A stretch of DNA of 64,000 nt from Faecousia sp. GTDB lineage: Bacteria > Bacillota > Clostridia > Oscillospirales > Oscillospiraceae. The notes below the pieces were generated by a model. It had not been told where the DNA came from. It searched no databases and saw nothing but the letters and a program-made list of their open reading frames with translations. The position numbers and the translations under genes are program-made. Shown in pieces: positions 51,123-64,000 of this stretch; position 1 is the stretch's first letter, and every line of letters begins with the position of its first letter. The stretch covers positions 4,137-68,136 of the forward strand of contig JAZRCV010000042.1 of assembly GCA_045659925.1 (NCBI GenBank), read 5' to 3'.

Positions 51123-53189
51123 TTACCTTCTTTCCATACACTCGTTGAGATAGCGGATGACGCTGCTCTGATTCAGGTCAACCTTGCTTCCATCTGAGGT
51201 AATGCGAATATGTAAATATTTGGGATGGAGCTGCAATTCAATCAGCCCCATTTCATGAAATGCATCCAGACATACGCGGGTACGCATCAGAGAACACATG
51301 GTACCGGCGCCGTGGGCAATCTTCCGGCACAGGCACTCCGCATTTTCCACCACAACACCGGCGCTGTGGTTGGAAATGAGATAGCGCCACACCAGAGCAA
51401 ACTCACCCCGGCTGGGAAGCAGCATTCTCGCCTCTTCCGGGGAGATTCTCTGGCGATCCCGGCAGCGGCTATATACCGCGTCCTCCGCCTGATTATTTTC
51501 CCGCTCATTTCGGCAGGGCCGCAGATCAACAACATTGAGCTGCACAGAGCTCATGCCCCGGAACTCATTTACCTGCGGGGTAAAGGCCACATCAATGTAG
51601 TCGCCCTGTGCCACCGCAGCCTGACGGGCCGTGGTGGAGAAGAAGATAGCTGCAATGCTCATACCTTGGTCTGTGCGAAGGCGCAGACGCAGATGCTTGC
51701 CGCCTCCCACCTCGCTGAGCTGCTCCACATACAAATGCTCCATGCAGAATATCGGCCGGGGACAGCCGCAGCCGCAGGGCTCCAGCTGTGCAAGTGAGGC
51801 CACATTATCAAGGGTCAGAAGCTGGGGAGAAATGCTGCAGTCGATTTCCAGTGCAGCCTTTGCCTCGCCGGATTCCACAAACTCCCAGGCAAGGCGGGAA
51901 ACTTCATTTCTAAAATCATCAATTCTATCCCGGCGGATGGTAAAGCCTGCCGCCAGCTCATGGCCGCCATAGCTCTCCAAAAGGCCTGAAAGTGTCGTCA
52001 GACCGGCAAAGAGGTTAAACCCGCCGTAAGAGCGGGAGGACGCCTTGCCTTTGTCTCCATCGAGACAAATCAGGAAAGTGGGGCAGGAATATTCCTCTGC
52101 CATGCGGGAAGCTACAATACCCACCACACCCTGATGCCAGTTTTCTCCCGCAAGCACAATGGCATTGGGCTTTTCGGTGGCATTGAGGCGGGCAACTGCA
52201 TCCTGATAAATTTCAGATTCAATGGCCTGCCGCTGACGATTCAGGCGGCAGAGGGTGGCTGCCTTCTTTGCCGCACATGCCGGATCATTGGTCATAAACA
52301 GCTCTACAGCCACTTCCACCTGACCCATACGCCCTGCTGCATTGATGCGGGGTGCCAGCACATAGCCTACGGTACCTGCCGTCACACTGCCCGGCTCACA
52401 GCCGCATTCTTTCAAAAGCGCTGCAATGCCCGCCCGCTTGGGGTGGGACAGGGCTTCAAGACCTTTGGCGACGAAGGTGCGGTTCTCGCCCCGCAGATTC
52501 ATCACATCCGCAATCACACCAAGGCACACCAGATCGCCATAGCGTTCCAGCATCGCCTCCTGATCTCCTGCAAGGGCAGCCGCCAGCTTGAAGGCCACAC
52601 CAACGCCACAAAGATCCGTGTGGGGATAGGTGCGATCCAAACGATGGGGGTTCACCACCGCGCAGGCATCGGGCAGATCCAGCTTGCATTCATGGTGATC
52701 TGTAATGATCAGATCAATGCCCAATTCCCGGCATAGCTCCGCCTCTGCTGTGGCAGTGATGCCGCAGTCAACTGTAATAATCAGTTTCACCTGCTCCCGG
52801 TGGAGATGGCGCACCGCCATTTCATTGAGGCCGTAGCCCTCTTCCAGGCGGCCGGGGATATAGCTGATGCAATGTGCCCCCTGACTGCGCAGAAAATCCA
52901 CCAGCAAACAGGTCGCAGTGATGCCGTCTACATCATAGTCGCCGTAAACTGCAATTTTTTCCCCTCTGCGAAGGGCCTCACGGACACGGGCTACCGCCCG
53001 GTCCATTTCACGAAGGGCAAAGGGATCACACAAAGGCAGATCGCAGCGCAGGAAATTGCGGGCTGACTCCGCTGTGTTGTAGCCCCTGCTGGACAGCACC
53101 CGGGCTGTCAGAGGTGAAAAACCAGCTCTGCACAGACCCTTTACCGCTTCGGATTCATAAAACGATATATCCCAGATTCCGTACTTCAT
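51123..53189 (-). CDS. recJ: Single-stranded-DNA-specific exonuclease RecJ
   Basis: 688 aa with DHH motifs (VYGDYDVDGITA, ITDHH) and DHHA1 (YGGHELAAG). Confidence 0.95.
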   Translation of the reverse strand: MKYGIWDISFYESEAVKGLCRAGFSPLTARVLSSRGYNTAESARNFLRCDLPLCDPFALREMDRAVARVREALRRGEKIAVYGDYDVDGITATCLLVDFLRSQGAHCISYIPGRLEEGYGLNEMAVRHLHREQVKLIITVDCGITATAEAELCRELGIDLIITDHHECKLDLPDACAVVNPHRLDRTYPHTDLCGVGVAFKLAAALAGDQEAMLERYGDLVCLGVIADVMNLRGENRTFVAKGLEALSHPKRAGIAALLKECGCEPGSVTAGTVGYVLAPRINAAGRMGQVEVAVELFMTNDPACAAKKAATLCRLNRQRQAIESEIYQDAVARLNATEKPNAIVLAGENWHQGVVGIVASRMAEEYSCPTFLICLDGDKGKASSRSYGGFNLFAGLTTLSGLLESYGGHELAAGFTIRRDRIDDFRNEVSRLAWEFVESGEAKAALEIDCSISPQLLTLDNVASLAQLEPCGCGCPRPIFCMEHLYVEQLSEVGGGKHLRLRLRTDQGMSIAAIFFSTTARQAAVAQGDYIDVAFTPQVNEFRGMSSVQLNVVDLRPCRNERENNQAEDAVYSRCRDRQRISPEEARMLLPSRGEFALVWRYLISNHSAGVVVENAECLCRKIAHGAGTMCSLMRTRVCLDAFHEMGLIELQLHPKYLHIRITSDGSKVDLNQSSVIRYLNECMERR

Positions 53190-54599: not shown

Positions 54600-55103
54600 A
54601 TGATGAAAAGTATGGCTTGCAAACATGAAACGGTTCCCTTCCGTGGGACAAAGGAGCAGGAAGCTGCCCTGATGGCTGTCATCAACGAGTATAAGGACAC
54701 TCCCGGTGCTCTGATGCCCATCTTGCAGAAAGCACAGGACATTTATGGTTATCTCCCCATTGAGGTTCAGACCATGATCTCCGACGAAACCGGTATCCCC
54801 ATGGAGAAGATCTATGGCGTTGCCACCTTCTACGCTCAGTTCTCTCTGGAGCCCAAGGGCAAGTACCGCATCTCTGTCTGCCTCGGTACCGCTTGCTACG
54901 TCAAGGGCGCTCAGGAAATCTACGACAAGCTCAAGGAGCTGCTGGGTGTTGGTGACGGCGGCTGCACCCCCGACGGCAAGTTCTCTCTGGATGCCTGCCG
55001 CTGCATCGGTGCCTGCGGTCTGGCTCCCGTTATGACGATCAATGACGATGTCTACGGTCGTCTCACCACGGATATGCTTCCGGACATTCTGGCTAAGTAT
55101 TAA
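54600..55103 (+). CDS. hydC: NuoE-like [2Fe-2S] subunit of HydABC-type hydrogenase (HydC)
   Basis: 167 aa with a thioredoxin-like 2Fe-2S motif: VCLGTACYVKG...LDACRCIGACGLAPV. The start is ambiguous between ATG at 54600, 54603 and 54612. Confidence 0.85.
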   Translation: MMKSMACKHETVPFRGTKEQEAALMAVINEYKDTPGALMPILQKAQDIYGYLPIEVQTMISDETGIPMEKIYGVATFYAQFSLEPKGKYRISVCLGTACYVKGAQEIYDKLKELLGVGDGGCTPDGKFSLDACRCIGACGLAPVMTINDDVYGRLTTDMLPDILAKY

Positions 55104-55117
55104 TTTGGTGGCATTTT

Positions 55118-55465
55118 ATGAAGTTTGAACAGATCAGACAGATTCTCAATGCGCAGGTTGTGTGCTGTGAGGAGCATATGGCTACAGAAGCCAGTGCTGC
55201 TGCCTATGCCAGCGATATGATGAGCGATGTGCTGGCCTTCGTTACCGACCAGACCGTTCTGCTGACCGGTCTTGTCAACGAGCAGGTCATCCGCACCGCC
55301 GCCATGCTGGACATGCGCTGCATCATTCTGGTTCGCAGCAAGCAGCCTACTCCCGGCATGATTCAGCTTGCAAAGCAAAATGACATTGCAATCATGACCA
55401 CCGGATTCAATCTCTATGAATCCTGCGGTATGCTTTACAGCAACGGTCTGAAGGAAGGTTGTTGA
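55118..55465 (+). CDS. DRTGG-domain protein (copy 1)
   Basis: 115 aa. ASDMMSDVLAFVTDQTVLLTGLVNEQVIRTAAMLDMRCIILVRSKQP is the DRTGG-type pattern. The canonical DRTGG residues read as LLTGL here. Confidence 0.65.
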   Translation: MKFEQIRQILNAQVVCCEEHMATEASAAAYASDMMSDVLAFVTDQTVLLTGLVNEQVIRTAAMLDMRCIILVRSKQPTPGMIQLAKQNDIAIMTTGFNLYESCGMLYSNGLKEGC

Positions 55466-55469
55466 AGCA

Positions 55470-55892
55470 ATGTCGGATGCGTTGAAGTTTGAGTATAAGA
55501 TCAGCGGCGAAAATTTTGCCTCCGCAGGTGAAGCCACCATGCGGATCAAAAAAGAACTTCGCTCGCTCGGCTTTTCCCCTGCACTGATCCGTCGCGTCTC
55601 CATCGCAATGTATGAAGGCGAGATCAATATGGTCATCCATGCCGGAGGCGGTGTGGCCACCGTGCTGGTCGATCCCCAGTGCGTTGAGATTACATTGGCA
55701 GACCAGGGTCCCGGCATCGCTGACATCAGCCTTGCCATGCAGGAAGGCTACACCACCGCACCCGATGCCATCCGCTCCTTTGGCTTTGGCGCAGGCATGG
55801 GCCTGCCCAACATGAAGAAGTACACCGATGACATGAGGATCGAATCCGAACTGAACAAAGGTACCACCGTATACATGAAAATCAATGCCTGA
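55470..55892 (+). CDS. Small GHKL-superfamily ATPase resembling anti-sigma Ser/Thr kinases (RsbW/SpoIIAB-like)
   Basis: 140 aa with N-box EGEINMVIHA, G1 DQGPGI and G2 GFGAGMGLPN. There is no HisKA/dimerisation domain. Confidence 0.7.
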   Translation: MSDALKFEYKISGENFASAGEATMRIKKELRSLGFSPALIRRVSIAMYEGEINMVIHAGGGVATVLVDPQCVEITLADQGPGIADISLAMQEGYTTAPDAIRSFGFGAGMGLPNMKKYTDDMRIESELNKGTTVYMKINA

Positions 55893-55930
55893 TCACGCTC
55901 TTGTGGCGTTTTTGGGCCGAATGAGGACAT

Positions 55931-57229
55931 ATGGCAAAATACAATCACTCGGTTTTACTGGATTTCAGCAAATGCAAGGGCTGCACCCACTGTCTAAAAC
56001 GCTGTCCTACCGAAGCGATCCGTATCCGCAACGGTCATGCGCAGATTTCTGCGACCAGTTGTATCGACTGCGGCGAGTGCATCCGCCTTTGCCCCTACAA
56101 TGCGAAAACGGCCATCTGCGATAAGCTGGAGGCCATCGAGTCCTTCCGCTACAAAATTGCCCTGCCGCCCCCCAGCCTCTACGGTCAGTTTGACCATCTG
56201 GACGATATCGACTATCTGCTCCAGGGTCTGCGTGATTATGGCTTTGACGAGGTATTTGAGGTAGCACAGGCTGCGGAGATCGTATCCGGCTATACCCGCA
56301 GATATCTGCGCCGTCCCGATGTCATAAAGCCTGCCATCAGCTCCGCGTGTCCTGCGATCTCGCATCTGATTGAGCAGCGCTTCCCCAATCTGATTGATAA
56401 TGTCATTCCGCTGCTGCCCCCTGTGGATGTGGCGGCGAGAATGGCCCGCGAAAAGGCGCTGGCTGAGCATCCTGAGCTCAAAAGCGAGGACATTGGCATC
56501 TGCTTCATTTCGCCTTGCCCCGCCAAAGTCAGCTACCTGAAAAACGAAATTGCAAAAGGCCGGTCCAATGTGGACTGCGTCGTTTCCATGGGAGATATGT
56601 ATTTCTCCCTAGTCAATATCATGAGCCGTGCCATTGAGCCTGAGGTAAATTCTCAGACCGGCATCATCGGCGTCAGCTGGGCTTCCAGCGGCGGCGAAGC
56701 CAGTGCACTGTTCAACGACCGCTATCTGGCAGCGGACGGCATCGAAAATGTCATCCGTGTGCTGGAAAACATTGATAACGGCTCCTTCCCGGAGCTGGAA
56801 TTCATCGAGCTCAATGCCTGCAGCGGTGGCTGTGTCGGCGGCGTACTGACGGTGGAAAATGCGTTCATCGCCAAGGCCCGTCTGCAAACCGTCCGCCACT
56901 ATCTACCCGTATCCCGCAACTGGAATGTCGCCGGTGATGCCAAATCGGATATTTCCATTCCGGACACTCTGTTTATGAGTGAGCCTCTGGAATATACCCC
57001 CCACGGCAGTCTGGCCGACAATATGATGGAAGCTTTCCGCAAGCGCGCCAAAATTCAGGAAATCGTCGATCGGCTTCCTGCACTGGATTGCGGTTCCTGC
57101 GGCTCTCCCACCTGCCTCGCCTTTGCAATGGACATTGTCAACGGCAACGCCACGGAGGATGAATGCATCGTAAAGATGCGGGATAGAATGCATGAGCTTT
57201 TGGGAGGATCTGACCATGACAGTCCGTGA
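55931..57229 (+). CDS. HydS-like (putative sensory) [FeFe]-hydrogenase paralogue lacking the proton-relay cysteine
   Basis: Two N-terminal 4Fe-4S motifs (CKGCTHCLKRCP, CIDCGECIRLCP). H-domain motifs are L1 SSACPAI, L2 SPCPAKVSY and L3 ELNACSGGCVGG. An extra C-terminal motif CGSCGSPTC...C is present. I saw no PAS domain. Confidence 0.75.
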   Translation: MAKYNHSVLLDFSKCKGCTHCLKRCPTEAIRIRNGHAQISATSCIDCGECIRLCPYNAKTAICDKLEAIESFRYKIALPPPSLYGQFDHLDDIDYLLQGLRDYGFDEVFEVAQAAEIVSGYTRRYLRRPDVIKPAISSACPAISHLIEQRFPNLIDNVIPLLPPVDVAARMAREKALAEHPELKSEDIGICFISPCPAKVSYLKNEIAKGRSNVDCVVSMGDMYFSLVNIMSRAIEPEVNSQTGIIGVSWASSGGEASALFNDRYLAADGIENVIRVLENIDNGSFPELEFIELNACSGGCVGGVLTVENAFIAKARLQTVRHYLPVSRNWNVAGDAKSDISIPDTLFMSEPLEYTPHGSLADNMMEAFRKRAKIQEIVDRLPALDCGSCGSPTCLAFAMDIVNGNATEDECIVKMRDRMHELLGGSDHDSP

Positions 57230-57542
57230 ACTTTGTGACGCCGCCGGCTTTGCCCCTCTGGCACTGCCGGATCCTGACCGTGAAATTGAAGGCTGCTATG
57301 TGGGCGACCTTCTGAGCTGGGTCATGGGCAATGCGTCCTATGGCTGCGCCTGGGTCACGATCATGACCAACCGTAATATCATCGCCGTAGCTACCCTCAT
57401 CGATATGGCCTGCATCCTTCTGGCAGAAGGCTGCACCCTGCCGGAGGATCTGACAGAGCTGGCAATGAGCCAGAATGTCAATGTGCTCACCAGCGCAAAG
57501 CCCGCGTATGAAACCTGCGCGGCACTGGCGGGGCTGCTATGA
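57216..57542 (+). CDS. DRTGG-domain protein (copy 2)
   Basis: 108 aa. VGDLLSWVMGNASYGCAWVTIMTNRNIIAVATLIDMACILLAEG parallels copy 1. ATG at 57216 sits behind gggagga and overlaps the upstream gene by 14 nt. Confidence 0.6.
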   Translation: MTVRELCDAAGFAPLALPDPDREIEGCYVGDLLSWVMGNASYGCAWVTIMTNRNIIAVATLIDMACILLAEGCTLPEDLTELAMSQNVNVLTSAKPAYETCAALAGLL

Positions 57543-58267
57543 GGCGCGTCTACTGCGACTTCCACATCCACTCGTGTCTGTCCCCCTGCGGTGACGACAG
57601 CATGACCCCGGCTCTGGCCGCCGGTCTTTTGAAGCTGTCGGGCTACGATGTGGCAGCCCTCACCGACCACAACGCCACAGGCAACTGCCCGGCCTTCTTC
57701 CGCGCCTGCGAAAGCTATGGCCTGACGCCTCTGGCCGGAATGGAGCTGACCACGGCGGAAGACATCCATCTGGTATGTCTGCTGAGAACCTGCGAGGAGG
57801 CTGAAGCCTTCGGGCAGGCAGTGCAGCAGCATCGGATGCTGATCCGCAATCGTCCCCAGTTTTTTGGACGGCAGCTTCTGATGGATGCGGAGGACAATAT
57901 TCTGGGTGAAGAACCGAATCTGCTTCCCAATGCCACGGATCTGTCCCTGGAGGATGCCTACGCATTGGCCACCGATTTTGGTGCCATCTGCTATCCCGCC
58001 CATGTGGACCGGGAAAGCAACGGCATTTTGGCCATCCTCGGTGATATGCCGGAATTGCCCTCCTTTTCCCACGCGGAATTCCGCGAACCGGAAAACCGGG
58101 ACAACTACTGCATCCACTATCCCCGCCTGAAGGGTCTGCGTCCCCTCTTTGGTTCCGACGCTCATCGACCCGACGCCATCTGCGATGCACAGTTCTCCAT
58201 TGAGATCGCGCAGACCGGCGATGTGGCGGCGGCAGTCATGGAAGCATTGCAAGGAGGAAGCCGATGA
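57539..58267 (+). CDS. PHP-family metal-dependent phosphoesterase
   Basis: 242 aa. CDFHIHSCLSPCGDD...LTDHNA...AGMELTT...PAHVD are PHP His/Asp metal ligands. ATGA overlap with the upstream gene. Confidence 0.75.
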   Translation: MRRVYCDFHIHSCLSPCGDDSMTPALAAGLLKLSGYDVAALTDHNATGNCPAFFRACESYGLTPLAGMELTTAEDIHLVCLLRTCEEAEAFGQAVQQHRMLIRNRPQFFGRQLLMDAEDNILGEEPNLLPNATDLSLEDAYALATDFGAICYPAHVDRESNGILAILGDMPELPSFSHAEFREPENRDNYCIHYPRLKGLRPLFGSDAHRPDAICDAQFSIEIAQTGDVAAAVMEALQGGSR

Positions 58268-58812
58268 AAGAGCTGTCACTCAACATTTTGGACATCGCCA
58301 TGAATTCCGTCAAAGCCGGTGCCAATCATCTTGGCATTGAACTGAACGAGACGGAAGAGCCTCTGCTCACCATTATCATTCGTGATGATGGCTGCGGTAT
58401 GAGTGAGGAATTTGTCCGGCGTCTGTCGGATCCCTTCTGCACCACCCGCACCACACGAAAGGTGGGTCTGGGCGTTCCCTTCTACCTGCTGGCAGCAGAG
58501 CAGACGGGCGGCGGCGTCACCATTGAATCCACCCCCGAGCCCGATCCCAATCACGGTACCACGGTAACTGCCGTGTTCCGCAAGGATCACATCGATTTTA
58601 CGCCCCTGGGCGATATCATCTCCACCATCACTACCCTGATCCACGGCTACCCGGACATTGCGCTGGAGTTTTCCCACCGCTTCCCTACCCACGCGGTAGA
58701 ATTGTCCACAGTTGAGATCAAGGCGATGCTTGGGGACATTCCCATCAACACTCTGGAAATCCTCAACTGGATCAGGGACTTTCTGGAAGAACAATACGAT
58801 CACCAATCATAG
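58264..58812 (+). CDS. GHKL-superfamily ATPase (HATPase_c-like, copy 2)
   Basis: 182 aa with an N-box-like LNILDIAMNSVKAGA, G1 RDDGCGM and G2 VGLGVPF. ATGA overlap with the PHP gene. Confidence 0.65.
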   Translation: MKELSLNILDIAMNSVKAGANHLGIELNETEEPLLTIIIRDDGCGMSEEFVRRLSDPFCTTRTTRKVGLGVPFYLLAAEQTGGGVTIESTPEPDPNHGTTVTAVFRKDHIDFTPLGDIISTITTLIHGYPDIALEFSHRFPTHAVELSTVEIKAMLGDIPINTLEILNWIRDFLEEQYDHQS

Positions 58813-58828
58813 AAGGAAGGATAACATC

Positions 58829-59197
58829 ATGAAAACACTCGAAGAACTTGCTCAGCTCAGAGAGCAAATGAAGGCGAAGATGGCAATCCGCACCACCGAA
58901 GGCAAGCTCCGTGTAGTAGTCGGCATGGCTACCTGCGGCATTGCTGCCGGCGCAAGACCCGTCCTCAACACCCTTGCCGACGAAGTCAGCAAGGAAGGCC
59001 TGACGGAAAAGGTTTCCGTTTCCCAGACCGGCTGCATTGGCATCTGCCAGTTTGAGCCCGTCATCGAAGTCTTTGACGGCGACTCCAAGGTCACCTATGT
59101 CAAGATGACCCCCGACAAGGCAAAGCGCATCGTTGCCGAGCACCTCAAGGGTGGCAAGGTTGTTCAGGAATACACCATCGGCAATTCTAATGTTTAA
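58829..59197 (+). CDS. Thioredoxin-like [2Fe-2S] ferredoxin
   Basis: 122 aa. VVGMATCGIAAG...QTGCIGICQFEP has four Cys in the NuoE/HydC-like spacing. Confidence 0.75.
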   Translation: MKTLEELAQLREQMKAKMAIRTTEGKLRVVVGMATCGIAAGARPVLNTLADEVSKEGLTEKVSVSQTGCIGICQFEPVIEVFDGDSKVTYVKMTPDKAKRIVAEHLKGGKVVQEYTIGNSNV

Positions 59198-59217: not shown

Positions 59218-61005
59218 ATGATTCGTTCTCATGTTATGATTTGTGCCGGTACCGGTTGTACCGCATCCGGCAGTGCTACTCTGCAGGCTTCCCTGCAGAA
59301 AGAGCTGGAAGCAAAGGGTCTGCAGGAAGAAGTCCGCATCGTCCCGACCGGCTGCTTCGGCCTTTGTGCCCTTGGCCCCATCATGATCATCTACCCCGAA
59401 GGCGTGTTCTATGCCAACGTTGAGGCATCTGATATTCCCGAAATCGTGGAAGAGCACCTGCTGAAGGGCCGTATCGTTCAGCGCCTCGTCCATACCGATG
59501 AGACCACCAAGGAACTCGTCACCAACCTGGCTGACACCAGCTTCTACAAGATCCAGCAGCGTGTTGCTCTGCGTAACTGCGGCGAAATCGACCCCGAAAA
59601 CATCGACGAATACATTGCCAAGGACGGCTATGCAGCCCTTGCCAAGGTTCTGACCCAGATGTCTCCTGAAGATGTCATCCAGACCCTGCTTGACTCCGGT
59701 CTTCGCGGCCGCGGCGGCGCAGGCTTCCCCACCGGCCTGAAGTGGAAGTTTGCCAGAGGCTATCAGGATGATCAGAAGTACGTCTGCTGCAACGCTGACG
59801 AAGGCGACCCCGGTGCATTCATGGACCGCTCCATCCTGGAAGGCGACCCCCATGCACTTCTCGAAGCTATGACCATCGCCGGTTACACCATCGGCGCAAA
59901 TCAGGGCTACATCTACGTTCGTGCTGAATATCCCATCGCTGTTCAGCGTCTGGACATCGCCATCAAGCAGTCCAGAGAATACGGCCTGCTGGGCGACAAC
60001 ATCCTCGGCACCGGCTTCAAGTTCAACATCGACCTGCGTCTGGGCGCTGGCGCATTCGTCTGCGGCGAAGAAACTGCTCTGATGACCTCCATCGAAGGCA
60101 ACCGCGGCGAACCCCGTCCCCGTCCTCCCTTCCCCGCTGAAAAGGGTCTGTACAACAAGCCCTCCATCCTGAACAACGTAGAAACCTACGCCAACATCCC
60201 CCAGATCATCCTCAAGGGCGCTGACTGGTTCGCCTCCATGGGCACCGAACAGTCCAAGGGCACCAAGGTCTTCGCTCTGGGCGGCAAGATCGAGCACACC
60301 GGCCTGGTGGAAGTCCCCATGGGCACCACCCTGCGCCAGATCGTTGAAGAAGTTGGCGGCGGCATCCCCAACGGCAAGAAGTTCAAGGCTGCTCAGACCG
60401 GCGGTCCTTCCGGCGGCTGCATCCCCATTGAACACTTCGACGTTCCCGTTGGCTACGAACACCTGGCAGAGCTGGGCTCCATCGTTGGTTCCGGCGGTCT
60501 GATCGTCATGGACGAAGACAACTGCATGGTCGACATCGCTAAGTTCTTCCTCGAATTCACCGTTGATGAATCCTGCGGTAAGTGCACTCCCTGCCGTATC
60601 GGCACCCGCCGTATGCTGGAGCTGCTCGACAAGATCACCGAGGGCAACGGCACCATGGAAGATCTGGAAAAGCTCGAAGAGCTGTGCTACTATGTCAAGG
60701 AAAACTCCCTGTGCGGTCTGGGCCAGACGGCTCCCAACCCCGTTGTTTCCACCCTCCGCTTCTTCCGCGATGAGTACATTGCCCATATCGTTGACAAGCG
60801 CTGCCCCGCTGGCGTCTGCAAGAGCCTGATGCAGTATGTCATCGATGCCGACAAGTGCAAGGGCTGCTCCCTCTGCGCAAGAAAGTGCCCCGTTGGCGCA
60901 ATCTCCGGTTCCGTCAAGAATCCCCATGTGATCGATCCTGTCAAGTGCATCAAGTGCGGCGCCTGCGAAGCAGCCTGCAAGTTCGATGCAATCAGCAAGA
61001 AGTAA
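59218..61005 (+). CDS. hydB: NuoF-like NAD(P)H/FMN-binding subunit of HydABC-type hydrogenase (HydB)
   Basis: 595 aa with an N-terminal 2Fe-2S (CAGTGC...GCFGLC), an FMN site GRGGAGFPTGLKW, a nucleotide site CNADEGDPGAF, the N3-type cluster ESCGKCTPCR, and two C-terminal 4Fe-4S motifs. Confidence 0.9.
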   Translation: MIRSHVMICAGTGCTASGSATLQASLQKELEAKGLQEEVRIVPTGCFGLCALGPIMIIYPEGVFYANVEASDIPEIVEEHLLKGRIVQRLVHTDETTKELVTNLADTSFYKIQQRVALRNCGEIDPENIDEYIAKDGYAALAKVLTQMSPEDVIQTLLDSGLRGRGGAGFPTGLKWKFARGYQDDQKYVCCNADEGDPGAFMDRSILEGDPHALLEAMTIAGYTIGANQGYIYVRAEYPIAVQRLDIAIKQSREYGLLGDNILGTGFKFNIDLRLGAGAFVCGEETALMTSIEGNRGEPRPRPPFPAEKGLYNKPSILNNVETYANIPQIILKGADWFASMGTEQSKGTKVFALGGKIEHTGLVEVPMGTTLRQIVEEVGGGIPNGKKFKAAQTGGPSGGCIPIEHFDVPVGYEHLAELGSIVGSGGLIVMDEDNCMVDIAKFFLEFTVDESCGKCTPCRIGTRRMLELLDKITEGNGTMEDLEKLEELCYYVKENSLCGLGQTAPNPVVSTLRFFRDEYIAHIVDKRCPAGVCKSLMQYVIDADKCKGCSLCARKCPVGAISGSVKNPHVIDPVKCIKCGACEAACKFDAISKK

Positions 61006-61018
61006 GGAGGAACAGAGC

Positions 61019-62773
61019 ATGGATATTACGATCAAAATCAATGGTTTCGAAGTGACCGCTCCCCGTGGCACTACGATCCTTCAGGCCGCAAGAATGGCCC
61101 ACATCGACATCCCCACCCTTTGCTACATGAAGGAAATCAATGCAATCGGCGCCTGCCGTCTGTGCGTTGTTGAAGCAAAGGAAGGCCCCCGTCCGGCAAA
61201 GCTGGTCGCCGCCTGTGTATACCCCATCTCCAACGGCATGGAAGTCGTTACCAACAGCCCCAAGGTCATCGAAGCAAGAAAGACCAACCTTGAGCTTCTC
61301 CTCTCCAACCACAATCGCTCCTGCCTGAGCTGCGTGCGCAGCGGCAGATGCGAACTGCAGACCCTCTGCCGTGAATACGGTGTCACCGAGGAAGGCAGAT
61401 ACGACGGCGTCAAGACTCCCAGCGAAATCGACGAGTCCGCCACCCATATGATCCGCGACAACTCCAAGTGCATCCTCTGCCGCCGCTGCGTGGCAGTTTG
61501 CGAGAAGAATCAGGCTGTCGGCGTCATCGGCGCCAACGAGCGTGGCTTCAAGACCAACATCGGCAGCGCCTTTGAAATGGGTCTGGGCGAAACCAGCTGC
61601 GTGGCCTGCGGCCAGTGCATCAACGTCTGCCCCACCGGCGCTCTGCATGAAAAGGAATCCATTGACGACGTTCTCGCCGCCATTGCCGATCCCACCAAGT
61701 ATGTCGTGGTTCAGACTGCTCCCGCTGTCCGTGCTGCTCTGGGCGAATGCTTCGGCCTGCCCATCGGCACCAACGTAGAAGGCAAGATGGTCGCTGCTCT
61801 GCGCCGTCTCGGCTTCGACCGCGTCTTCGATACCGACTTCTCCGCTGACCTCACCATCATGGAAGAAGCCAACGAGTTCATCGAACGCGTACAGAATGGC
61901 GGCAAGCTGCCCCTCATCACCTCCTGCAGCCCCGGCTGGATCAAGTACTGCGAACACTACTTCCCCGAAATGGTCGAGAACCTGTCCTCCTGCAAGTCTC
62001 CCCAGCAGATGCTCGGCGCTGTCATCAAGACCTACTTCGCAGAGACCATGGGCATTGATCCCAAGAACATCGTTTCTGTTTCCGTCATGCCCTGCACCGC
62101 TAAGAAGTTCGAGATCGGCCGCGACAATCAGAACGCTGCCGGTGTTGCCGACGTGGACTTTGCTCTCTCCACCCGTGAACTCGGCCGCATGATCGAGAAG
62201 GTCGGCATCCGCTTCCTGGATCTGCCCGATGAAGAGTACGACTCTCCCCTGGGTGAAGACACCGGCGCAGCTGTCATCTTCGGCGCCACCGGCGGTGTTA
62301 TGGAAGCTGCTCTGCGTACTGCAGTGGAAACCCTCACCGGCACCGAGCTGGAAAGCGTTGACTTCCACGAAGTCCGCGGCCTGGCTGGCATCAAGGAAGC
62401 TACCTACAACGTCAACGGCATGGACGTCAACGTTGCTGTCGCTTCCGGCCTGAAGAATGCTCATGACCTGCTCATGCGTGTCCAGAACGGCGAAGCCAAC
62501 TATCACTTCATCGAGATCATGGGTTGCCCCGGCGGCTGCATCAACGGCGGCGGCCAGCCCCAGCAGCCTGCTTCCGTCCGCAACTTTGTGGATGTTCCCG
62601 CTCTGCGCGCCAAGGTTCTGTACGATCAGGATGCAGCAATGCCCCTGCGTAAGTCCCACGCAAATCCCTCTATCCAGAAGCTGTACGCTGAGTACTTCGA
62701 GAAACCCGGCAGCCACAAGGCTCACGAGTATCTCCACACCACTTACGTCAAGCGTACCATCAACCACAACTAA
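61019..62773 (+). CDS. hydA: [FeFe]-hydrogenase catalytic subunit HydA (M3 architecture) with non-canonical L1 motif
   Basis: 584 aa with an N-terminal 2Fe-2S (CYMKEINAIGACRLC), a His-ligated cluster and two 4Fe-4S motifs. L1 is TSCSPGW, L2 is MPCTAKKFE and L3 is EIMGCPGGCINGGGQP. ATG at 61019 sits behind aaggagg. Confidence 0.9.
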   Translation: MDITIKINGFEVTAPRGTTILQAARMAHIDIPTLCYMKEINAIGACRLCVVEAKEGPRPAKLVAACVYPISNGMEVVTNSPKVIEARKTNLELLLSNHNRSCLSCVRSGRCELQTLCREYGVTEEGRYDGVKTPSEIDESATHMIRDNSKCILCRRCVAVCEKNQAVGVIGANERGFKTNIGSAFEMGLGETSCVACGQCINVCPTGALHEKESIDDVLAAIADPTKYVVVQTAPAVRAALGECFGLPIGTNVEGKMVAALRRLGFDRVFDTDFSADLTIMEEANEFIERVQNGGKLPLITSCSPGWIKYCEHYFPEMVENLSSCKSPQQMLGAVIKTYFAETMGIDPKNIVSVSVMPCTAKKFEIGRDNQNAAGVADVDFALSTRELGRMIEKVGIRFLDLPDEEYDSPLGEDTGAAVIFGATGGVMEAALRTAVETLTGTELESVDFHEVRGLAGIKEATYNVNGMDVNVAVASGLKNAHDLLMRVQNGEANYHFIEIMGCPGGCINGGGQPQQPASVRNFVDVPALRAKVLYDQDAAMPLRKSHANPSIQKLYAEYFEKPGSHKAHEYLHTTYVKRTINHN

Positions 62774-62878: not shown

Positions 62879-64000
62879 TTAATACATGCCGCCCATGCCG
62901 CCGCCTGCGCTGGCTGCTGCCAGAGCTGCTTCTGCTGCGGGATCGGGCTTGTCGGTCACGAGGGATTCGGTGGTGAGGACGCAGGATGCGATAGAAGCTG
63001 CGTTCTCCAGAGCGCTGCGGGTCACCTTGGTGGGATCCACGATGCCGTTGGCGATCATTTCCACATATTCCTCGGTGTAGGCGTAGAAGCCGTAGCCGGG
63101 CTTGCCGCTGTAGCGGATCTTCTCGAAGATCACAGAGCCGTCAACACCGGCATTCTCCGCAATCTGGCGGATGGGTGCCTGCAGTGCCTTGGCAATGATC
63201 TGAGCGCCGGTCTTCTCGTCACCCTTCAGGGTGTCCACCAGAGCCTCTACAGCGGGGATGGCGTTGACATAAGCAGTGCCGCCGCCTGCTACGATGCCTT
63301 CTTCAACGGCTGCCTTGGTGGCGTTGAGGGCGTCCTCGATGCGGAGCTTCTGTTCCTTCATGGCAACTTCAGTCTGAGCGCCGACGCGGATGACAGCTAC
63401 GCCGCCTGCCAGCTTGGCAAGACGCTCCTGCAGCTTTTCACGGTCGTAATCGGAAGTGGTGATCTCGATGGCAGTCTTGATCTCCAGGGTACGGGCTGCA
63501 ATGGCATCTTCACTGCCTGCGCCGTCCACGATGGTGGTGTTGTCCTTGCCGATCTTGATCTTATGGGCACGGCCCAGATCGCTGAGCTGAGCTTCCTTGA
63601 GATCCATGTTCAGATCGCTGGAAATCACAGTGCCGCCGGTGAGGATGGCGATATCCTGCAGCATTTCCTTTCTGCGGTCGCCATAGCCGGGAGCCTTAAC
63701 AGCAACGCAGGTGAAGGTACCGCGCAGACGGTTGACAAGGATGGTAGCCAGAGCGTCGCCCTCTACATCCTCTGCGATGATGACCATCTTCTGGCCCATC
63801 TTCACGATCTGCTCCAGAATGGGCAGAATGTCCTGAATGCTGGAAATCTTCTTATCGGTGAACAGGATGAAAGGATCGTCGATGACTGCTTCCATCTTGT
63901 CGGTATCGGTGATCATATAGGGGGAGATATAGCCGCGATCAAACTGCATACCCTCAACTACATCCAGAGAGGTCTCGCCGGTCTTGGATTCTTCAATGGT
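62879..64000 (-). CDS. groL: Chaperonin GroEL, C-terminal ~370 aa (5' end beyond the window)
   Basis: [23 protein letters not shown] and the C-terminal GGMGGMY tail. The frame stays open to the window edge. Confidence 0.95.

Follow-up and report, generated by a model that had tools for sequence, protein, structure and literature searches.

Electron-bifurcating [FeFe]-hydrogenases of the HydABC type have been solved from Acetobacterium woodii and Thermoanaerobacter kivui, and in the A. woodii enzyme Ser301 was noted to ligate the [4Fe-4S] part of the H-cluster, with no apparent effect on the Fourier-transform infrared (FTIR) spectrum (Katsyv et al. 2023, JACS, PMC10021017). This Ser-type complex accumulates the HoxH and Hhyd states and is active, bidirectional and bifurcating, and the bifurcating activities of the A. 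woodii and T. kivui complexes are 4.1 and 20.5 U/mg, respectively (PMC10021017). Additionally, the engineered C170S and C170D variants of CrHydA1 keep the [4Fe-4S] cluster, accept the [2Fe] part and turn over, while C170A does not (Kertess et al. 2017, PMC5855289). A serine variant of the ligand site is thus already known, since it is described in the solved and active A. woodii enzyme. In the searchable literature, which excludes subscription-only journals so that earlier surveys are possible, the natural TSCSP variant is mentioned only in Katsyv et al. 2023 and Di Rienzi et al. 2013, and no systematic functional study of natural Cys/Ser alternation was found there. Here we analyzed a stretch of 64,000 nucleotides from Faecousia sp. 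(contig JAZRCV010000042.1; hereafter the window), which encodes HydA, the catalytic subunit of a HydABC-type hydrogenase, with the L1 motif TSCSPGW in place of TSCCPxW. The original prediction had suggested that this motif is anomalous. Our surveys do not bear this out: in a large family of electron-bifurcating hydrogenases from gut bacteria, TSCSP is the usual form of the motif and has been selected for.

The codons ACC TCC TGC AGC CCC GGC TGG at window positions 61919-61939 encode T-S-C-S-P-G-W and lie in frame with the open reading frame (ORF) 60986..62773 on the forward strand. The codon of Ser304 is AGC, and a single A-to-T transversion would turn it into TGC for Cys, as had been stated before. 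The peptide flanking the motif, PLITSCSPGWIKYCEHYFPEMVENLSSCKSPQQ, matches the earlier quotation, and the L2 motif MPCTAKKFE and the L3 motif (Table 1) are intact, also as predicted. HMMER alignments against CpI, T. kivui HydA1 (8A6T) and A. woodii HydA1 (7Q4V) contain no gaps from well before L1 to past L2, and a BLASTP alignment with A. woodii HydA1 (57% identity over the full length) is also gapless around L1-L2. By residue counting along these gapless alignments, Cys303 is equivalent to CpI Cys299, the proton relay, while the Ser304 position is equivalent to CpI Cys300, T. kivui Cys299 and A. woodii Ser301, the [4Fe-4S] ligand site, and by established equivalence also to CrHydA1 Cys170. 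The gapless register that the original prediction had assumed, and the roles it had assigned to the two positions (the first Cys as relay, the second as cluster ligand), are therefore right as judged from these alignments. A register shift was rejected on the strength of the gapless alignments to three solved enzymes, together with A. woodii HydA being the best fold match of the model described below.

The sequence, the domain composition and the predicted fold all assign HydA to a standard family. The protein likely starts at Met12 of the mechanical ORF from 60986, that is at 61019 behind an AGGAGG ribosome-binding site, and from there comprises 584 residues, the same length as a database protein (P0001). 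It scores 900 bits against the NCBIfam model NF040763 'NADH-dependent [FeFe] hydrogenase, group A6' (curated cut-off 765) across profile positions 1-571 of 571, and 530 bits against TIGR02512 (cut-off 406). Pfam matches follow the order Fer2_4, NADH-G_4Fe-4S_3, Fer4_7, Fe_hyd_lg_C and Fe_hyd_SSU, and this corresponds to the M3-type architecture of a 2Fe-2S domain, a NuoG-type His-ligated 4Fe-4S domain, a 2x[4Fe-4S] domain, the H-domain and a small-subunit-like tail. The L2 signature MPCxxKxxE and the L3 signature ExMxCxxGCxxGGGQP, which contain the other three cluster Cys residues, are both present. In the textbook group A motif TSCCPxW both Cys are required; HydA keeps the relay Cys and has Ser for the ligand Cys. 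The AlphaFold (AF2) model, built on alignment A1 and used for fold and confidence only, has a mean predicted local distance difference test score of 89 (~91 around L1) and a predicted template modeling score of 0.89. Its best match in the PDB is A. woodii HydA (7q4w_A; template modeling (TM) score 0.95, root-mean-square deviation 2.1 Å), followed by T. kivui HydA and CpI. By sequence and predicted fold, HydA belongs with the ordinary catalytic subunits of electron-bifurcating hydrogenases of the HydABC type (NCBIfam group A6; HydDB group A3).

The distribution of the serine was surveyed at three depths. All 120 nearest database homologues, which share 75-100% identity with HydA and come from many independent assemblies, carry TSCSPGW; among them are P0002-P0005, which stem from separate assemblies and are 95-96% identical to it. 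When one genome per species was scanned, 80 loci were obtained from Lachnospiraceae, Oscillospiraceae, Acutalibacteraceae, Christensenellaceae, Anaerovoracaceae, Holdemania and other groups, of which 77 have TSCSP and 3 have TSCCP (54-75% identity). The serine of these 77 loci is encoded by TCA (26), TCT (19), TCG (11), TCC (8), AGC (8) or AGT (5), so that 64 codons belong to the TCN family and 13 to the AGY family. A change between TCN and AGY needs two substitutions, for which Cys (TGY) is one possible intermediate. The use of both Ser codon families shows that Ser has been under selection over long times and excludes a slip in sequencing. The original prediction had kept open that AGC is a sequencing error; we give a negligible chance to this, and likewise to a fault of assembly or to a mutation that recently inactivated a canonical TSCCP enzyme. 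The one support for such an origin is the single transversion that separates AGC from TGC, and against it stand the serine in every one of the nearest homologues and in 77/80 of the species-level loci with six different codons, as well as an intact hydA ORF with all other catalytic residues conserved.

At the third depth, an exhaustive HMMER search of 1.84 billion representatives clustered at 50% identity gave 136 alignable H-domains. The ligand column of these diverse sequences contains Cys in 115 and Ser in 21, and no other residue. The columns of CpI C355, C499 and C503 are Cys in 136/136, and 132/136 sequences have the relay Cys. The restriction of the ligand column to Cys or Ser fits the behavior of CrHydA1, in which C170S works and C170A does not. 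A crude neighbor-joining tree with Fitch parsimony requires at least 14 Cys/Ser changes, which, on a distance tree of deeply diverged sequences, would indicate only that several such changes took place. Since Ser replaces the ligand Cys in 21 of the 136 diverse group A H-domains and in an active solved enzyme, the textbook motif TSCCPxW is too narrow, and failing it is no argument against membership of group A. A common and fully active TSCSP variant in a large alignment, the outcome that the original prediction had named as counting against itself, is what we obtain, as far as surveys of sequence and the data published on A. woodii can tell.

Several sequences recovered in these searches depart from the common pattern. 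The three TSCCPGW loci (L049, L072 and L078; codon TGC) lie inside an otherwise Ser-type clade, have Ala before the L3 Cys, and have hydC, hydB and hydA in a simple operon that lacks the sensor cassette described below. Their Cys may have arisen by reversion, or it may mark an intermediate step between the Ser codon families. Rarer L1 variants were observed in P0230 (SSASPAW, which lacks the relay Cys as well as the ligand Cys), P0130 (TSCSIGW) and P0137 (TSCSAAW), the latter two with Pro301 lost, and these proteins may be non-catalytic or sensory paralogues. The top match of the search of representatives, P0121, is a protein of 4122 residues with seven separate H-domain matches at ~45% identity, in which the L1 pattern found no motif; it may be a fusion of several hydrogenases into one giant protein, or else result from misassembly or be a eukaryotic polyprotein-like call.

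We weighed which residue completes the coordination of the cluster in HydA. One option named in the original prediction was that a nearby extra Cys compensates for the serine. Cys325 of SSCKS or Cys311 of KYCEH would then be the fourth [4Fe-4S]H ligand and Ser304 a bystander. In favor of this, the close Ser-type clade also has Cys at the SSC/STC position in at least 117/120 homologues and in 77/77 loci, as does A. woodii (Cys322 by residue counting). However, the Cys of the SSC column (CpI 321) is found in 66/115 Cys-type and 16/21 Ser-type H-domains (Fisher p = 0.146), or 82/136 overall, and 5/21 of the diverse Ser-type sequences have Ala or Thr there, while the three Cys-type loci of the clade retain this Cys. 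The co-variation first suspected from A. woodii (S + C) versus T. kivui and CpI (C + A) was accordingly rejected, Cys being the majority residue in both backgrounds. Compensation by the KYC Cys was rejected as well, because its column is variable, with Cys in only 15/136 sequences and Val, Ala and Ile commoner, and Ile is found in A. woodii. Furthermore, if the side chain at the ligand column were irrelevant, Ala or Gly would be expected in it, whereas only Cys or Ser occurs, and the published model names Ser301 as the ligand (PMC10021017). Ligation by either extra Cys is thus considered very unlikely.

It is likewise highly improbable that Cys303 shifts to ligate the cluster, in which case the relay would be lost and a slow or sensory hydrogenase would result. 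The L1 loop has been described as flexible (Kertess et al. 2017, PMC5855289), and a sensory paralogue is encoded nearby, both of which would fit such a shift. However, no gaps interrupt the alignment with CpI, T. kivui and A. woodii, and HydA has a complete CpI-type proton pathway: C303, E283, S323, E286 and R290 correspond to CpI C299, E279, S319, E282 and R286, with the CpI numbering taken from the gapless HMMER alignment. These pathway residues are conserved, E286 and R290 being invariant in alignment A1 and E283 conserved in at least 90% of its sequences. In addition, the Ser-type A. woodii enzyme accumulates HoxH and Hhyd and works in both directions as a bifurcating enzyme (PMC10021017), and in the sensor encoded by this operon the situation is the reverse: its SSACPA has lost the relay and kept the ligand Cys. 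A sensory, HydS-like identity (groups C/D) for HydA itself was ruled out by its kept relay Cys and proton pathway.

Compared with Cys325, Cys311 and a shifted relay, Ser O-gamma is most likely the fourth ligand. It would take the place of the thiolate at the H-cluster cubane, as modeled for A. woodii Ser301, and with the relay Cys303, the three other cluster Cys and the proton-pathway residues retained, HydA would be a catalytically competent enzyme. Ligation of the cluster by Ser was among the options named in the original prediction, and this option agrees with the published A. woodii model; the altered catalysis that the prediction expected in any case conflicts with the typical H-cluster FTIR signature and the active, bidirectional, bifurcating A. 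woodii complex. For HydA itself we infer the Ser O-gamma to Fe bond by analogy, and NAD(H)- and ferredoxin-coupled bifurcation, demonstrated for the A. woodii and T. kivui homologues, would be expected of it on the same ground. Overall, HydA is very probably an ordinary subunit of an NAD(H)-/ferredoxin-dependent bifurcating HydABC, in which Ser is normal at the ligand site and the enzyme is competent. In this statement the sequence, the register, the family membership, the clade-wide conservation and the selection for Ser come from the present analysis, and activity and FTIR come from the literature on A. woodii.

Several points weigh against this interpretation. The functional data come from homologues rather than from the HydA of the window. 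The A. woodii map has a resolution of 3.4 Å, which means that the Fe-O(Ser) bond is modeled and not resolved, and the same paper reports A. woodii HydABC to be ~five-fold less active than T. kivui HydABC (PMC10021017). Because the two differ in organism and temperature optimum, this activity gap is no evidence for or against an effect of Ser. In CrHydA1, C170S is slow to mature and reaches roughly 9-32% of wild-type H2 evolution (PMC5855289), from which it follows that a Ser ligand is not automatically neutral; natural Ser-type enzymes may have compensating changes.

A comparison with individual described enzymes places HydA closest to A. woodii HydA1 of HydABC(D) (PDB 7Q4V, 7Q4W, 8A5E; PMC10021017). 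The two share the domain order, the identical segments ITSCSPGW (Ser301) and SSCKSPQ, intact L2 and L3 motifs, and genes for a NuoF-like HydB and a NuoE-like HydC alongside. They differ in the residue before the L3 Cys (Ala in A. woodii, Gly in the window) and at the KYC position (Ile in A. woodii, Cys in the window). The window operon carries a HydS-type sensor cassette between hydC and hydB. HydA1 of T. kivui, a thermophile, is also of the bifurcating HydABC type (PDB 8A6T; TM 0.92) and has the same relay Cys, L2 and L3, but its L1 is TSCCPSW with Cys299 as the ligand, and STA replaces SSC. The HydA of Thermotoga maritima (PDB 7P5H), another bifurcating HydABC-type enzyme, was compared by fold alone (TM 0.86). 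CpI of Clostridium pasteurianum (e.g. PDB 4XDC), the monomeric reference of group A1, resembles HydA in its M3-type architecture (44% identity, TM 0.91, gapless at L1), whereas it has TSCCPGW and SSAKSPQQ and is a ferredoxin-dependent monomer outside a HydABC complex. CrHydA1 C170S has the identical Cys-to-Ser exchange at the corresponding ligand site; unlike the evolved native Ser of the window family, it is an artificial mutant, made in a minimal algal enzyme, and it matures slowly and is less active (PMC5855289). Finally, TSCSPGW also occurs in the trimeric HydABC-type 'confurcating' hydrogenases of Melainabacteria ACD20, two paralogues that are also reported with the L3 Cys changed to Ile, unlike the intact L3 of the window (Di Rienzi et al. 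2013, PMC3787301).

A further reading is that Ser ligation adaptively tunes the [4Fe-4S]H potential, the catalytic bias, the maturation or the O2 robustness, with second-sphere co-adaptation such as the Gly before Cys503; we regard it as possible but rather doubtful. It is compatible with Ser being the normal ligand of a competent HydA and adds a functional consequence to it. Three sequence observations speak for tuning. Ser is maintained in both codon families, the position is only C or S with repeated switching, and Gly at the CpI-498 position is almost confined to the Ser background. Specifically, this Gly occurs in 8/21 Ser-type versus 1/115 Cys-type representatives, in 36/77 Ser-type versus 0/3 Cys-type genome loci, and in 109/120 close homologues. 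In CrHydA1 C170S, moreover, the ratio of uptake to evolution moved towards evolution (PMC5855289). On the other side, the published A. woodii FTIR data show no apparent effect (PMC10021017), frequent toggling between C and S is equally compatible with near-neutrality, and the counts for Gly ignore phylogeny, the Ser-type A. woodii enzyme having Ala at this position. Gly502 may therefore be a second-sphere accommodation or a sub-clade marker. In the literature searched, Ser ligation is noted only in passing for A. woodii and is not dissected (PMC10021017). Only tentatively, then, natural Ser (oxygen) ligation could be a selected, repeatedly gained and lost tuning device in gut-clostridial HydABC, one that would bring a measurable shift relative to Cys-type relatives.

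The features of the region are collected in Table 1.

Table 1. Features of the hydrogenase region and its flanks, in window positions
Feature	Position	Strand	Basis or equivalence
hydA, catalytic [FeFe]-hydrogenase subunit of HydABC-type complex	61019..62773	+	NCBIfam, Pfam, A. woodii identity, AF2 fold
Proton-pathway residues E283, E286, R290 (EANEFIER)	61865..61888	+	CpI E279, E282, R286
L1 TSCSPGW	61919..61939	+	Cys303 = 61925-61927, Ser304 = 61928-61930
Cys311 of KYCEH	61949..61951	+	Variable position
S323-S324-C325	61985..61993	+	S323 = proton-pathway Ser (CpI S319); C325 = CpI A321
L2 MPCTAKKFE	62087..62113	+	Cys359 = CpI C355 ligand
L3 EIMGCPGGCINGGGQP	62513..62560	+	Cys503, Cys507 = CpI C499, C503
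Gly502, before L3 ligand Cys503 (EIM-G-CPGGC)	62522-62524	+	CpI position 498
hydC, NuoE-like thioredoxin-like [2Fe-2S] subunit	54600..55103	+	Profile/Pfam matches; in 55/56 related loci
Sensor/regulatory cassette between hydC and hydB	55118..58812	+	Profile/Pfam matches
HydS-like sensory H-domain protein	55931-57229	+	L1 SSACPA, L2 SPCPAK, L3 ACSGGCVGG, C-terminal PF04060
HydD-like small thioredoxin-like [2Fe-2S] ferredoxin	58829..59197	+	Profile/Pfam matches
hydB, NuoF-like FMN/NAD(H) subunit, N-terminal 2Fe-2S, C-terminal 4Fe-4S	59218..61005	+	Directly upstream of hydA; in 55/56 related loci
RecJ-like exonuclease ORF	51123-53189	-	By eye from translation
GroEL-like chaperonin sequence	62879-63949	-	By eye from translation

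The operon was compared across 56 related loci with at least 7 kb of upstream sequence, and the cassette was sought within 8 kb upstream. The HydD-like gene gives a tblastn match in 53/56 of these loci, some of the low-identity matches falling on the N-terminus of HydB. The cassette of the window encodes, in order, a DRTGG protein, an anti-sigma-F-like HATPase, the HydS-like H-domain protein, a DRTGG-like protein, a PHP phosphoesterase and a second HATPase; the second DRTGG-like protein has no family match of its own and is named from its conserved place in the cassette. In L1 of the HydS-like protein Ala takes the place of the relay Cys while the ligand Cys is retained, which is the converse of HydA. 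The protein contains no PAS domain, and signaling would instead depend on the DRTGG, HATPase and PHP proteins that are encoded separately on either side.

The original prediction had found altered catalysis notable next to this sensor cassette. The cassette proved to be a common accessory, present in about 32/56 related loci, while about 40% lack it within 8 kb. It occurs in three arrangements: between hydC and hydB, which is how the window has it (L016, L025, L027, L030), upstream in the same direction (L018, L032, L051, L056), or divergent upstream of hydC (L005, L008, L010, L014, L019, L033, mostly labeled Lachnospiraceae). TSCSP is found with the cassette in 32 loci and without it in 21, and the Cys-type loci are without it in 3/3, which is not significant at this sample size (Fisher p = 0.07, n=3). 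A functional link between the L1 Ser and the sensor cassette was rejected, because TSCSP occurs both with and without it. That the cassette lies next to hydCBA is customary in this family and carries no particular information on the L1 Ser.

Outside the hydrogenase genes, the GroEL-like chaperonin sequence lies near the window end, where its N-terminal part would fall beyond the listed ORF, and the RecJ-like ORF on the other side encodes 688 residues. These genes flanking the hydrogenase region are housekeeping genes.

As a finding about this genome, the serine is minor: it is what a curated family normally has at this site, and it has been published for an enzyme that is both solved and active. 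For the family, the L1 signature of HydABC-type enzymes is better read as TSC[CS]PxW than as TSCCPxW, and motif screens that require 'CC' would wrongly call a large share of the hydrogenases of gut Clostridia defective. A position that accepts only Cys or Ser, switches often between them and uses both Ser codon families is a natural experiment on how oxygen and sulfur compare as ligands of a catalytic Fe-S cluster.

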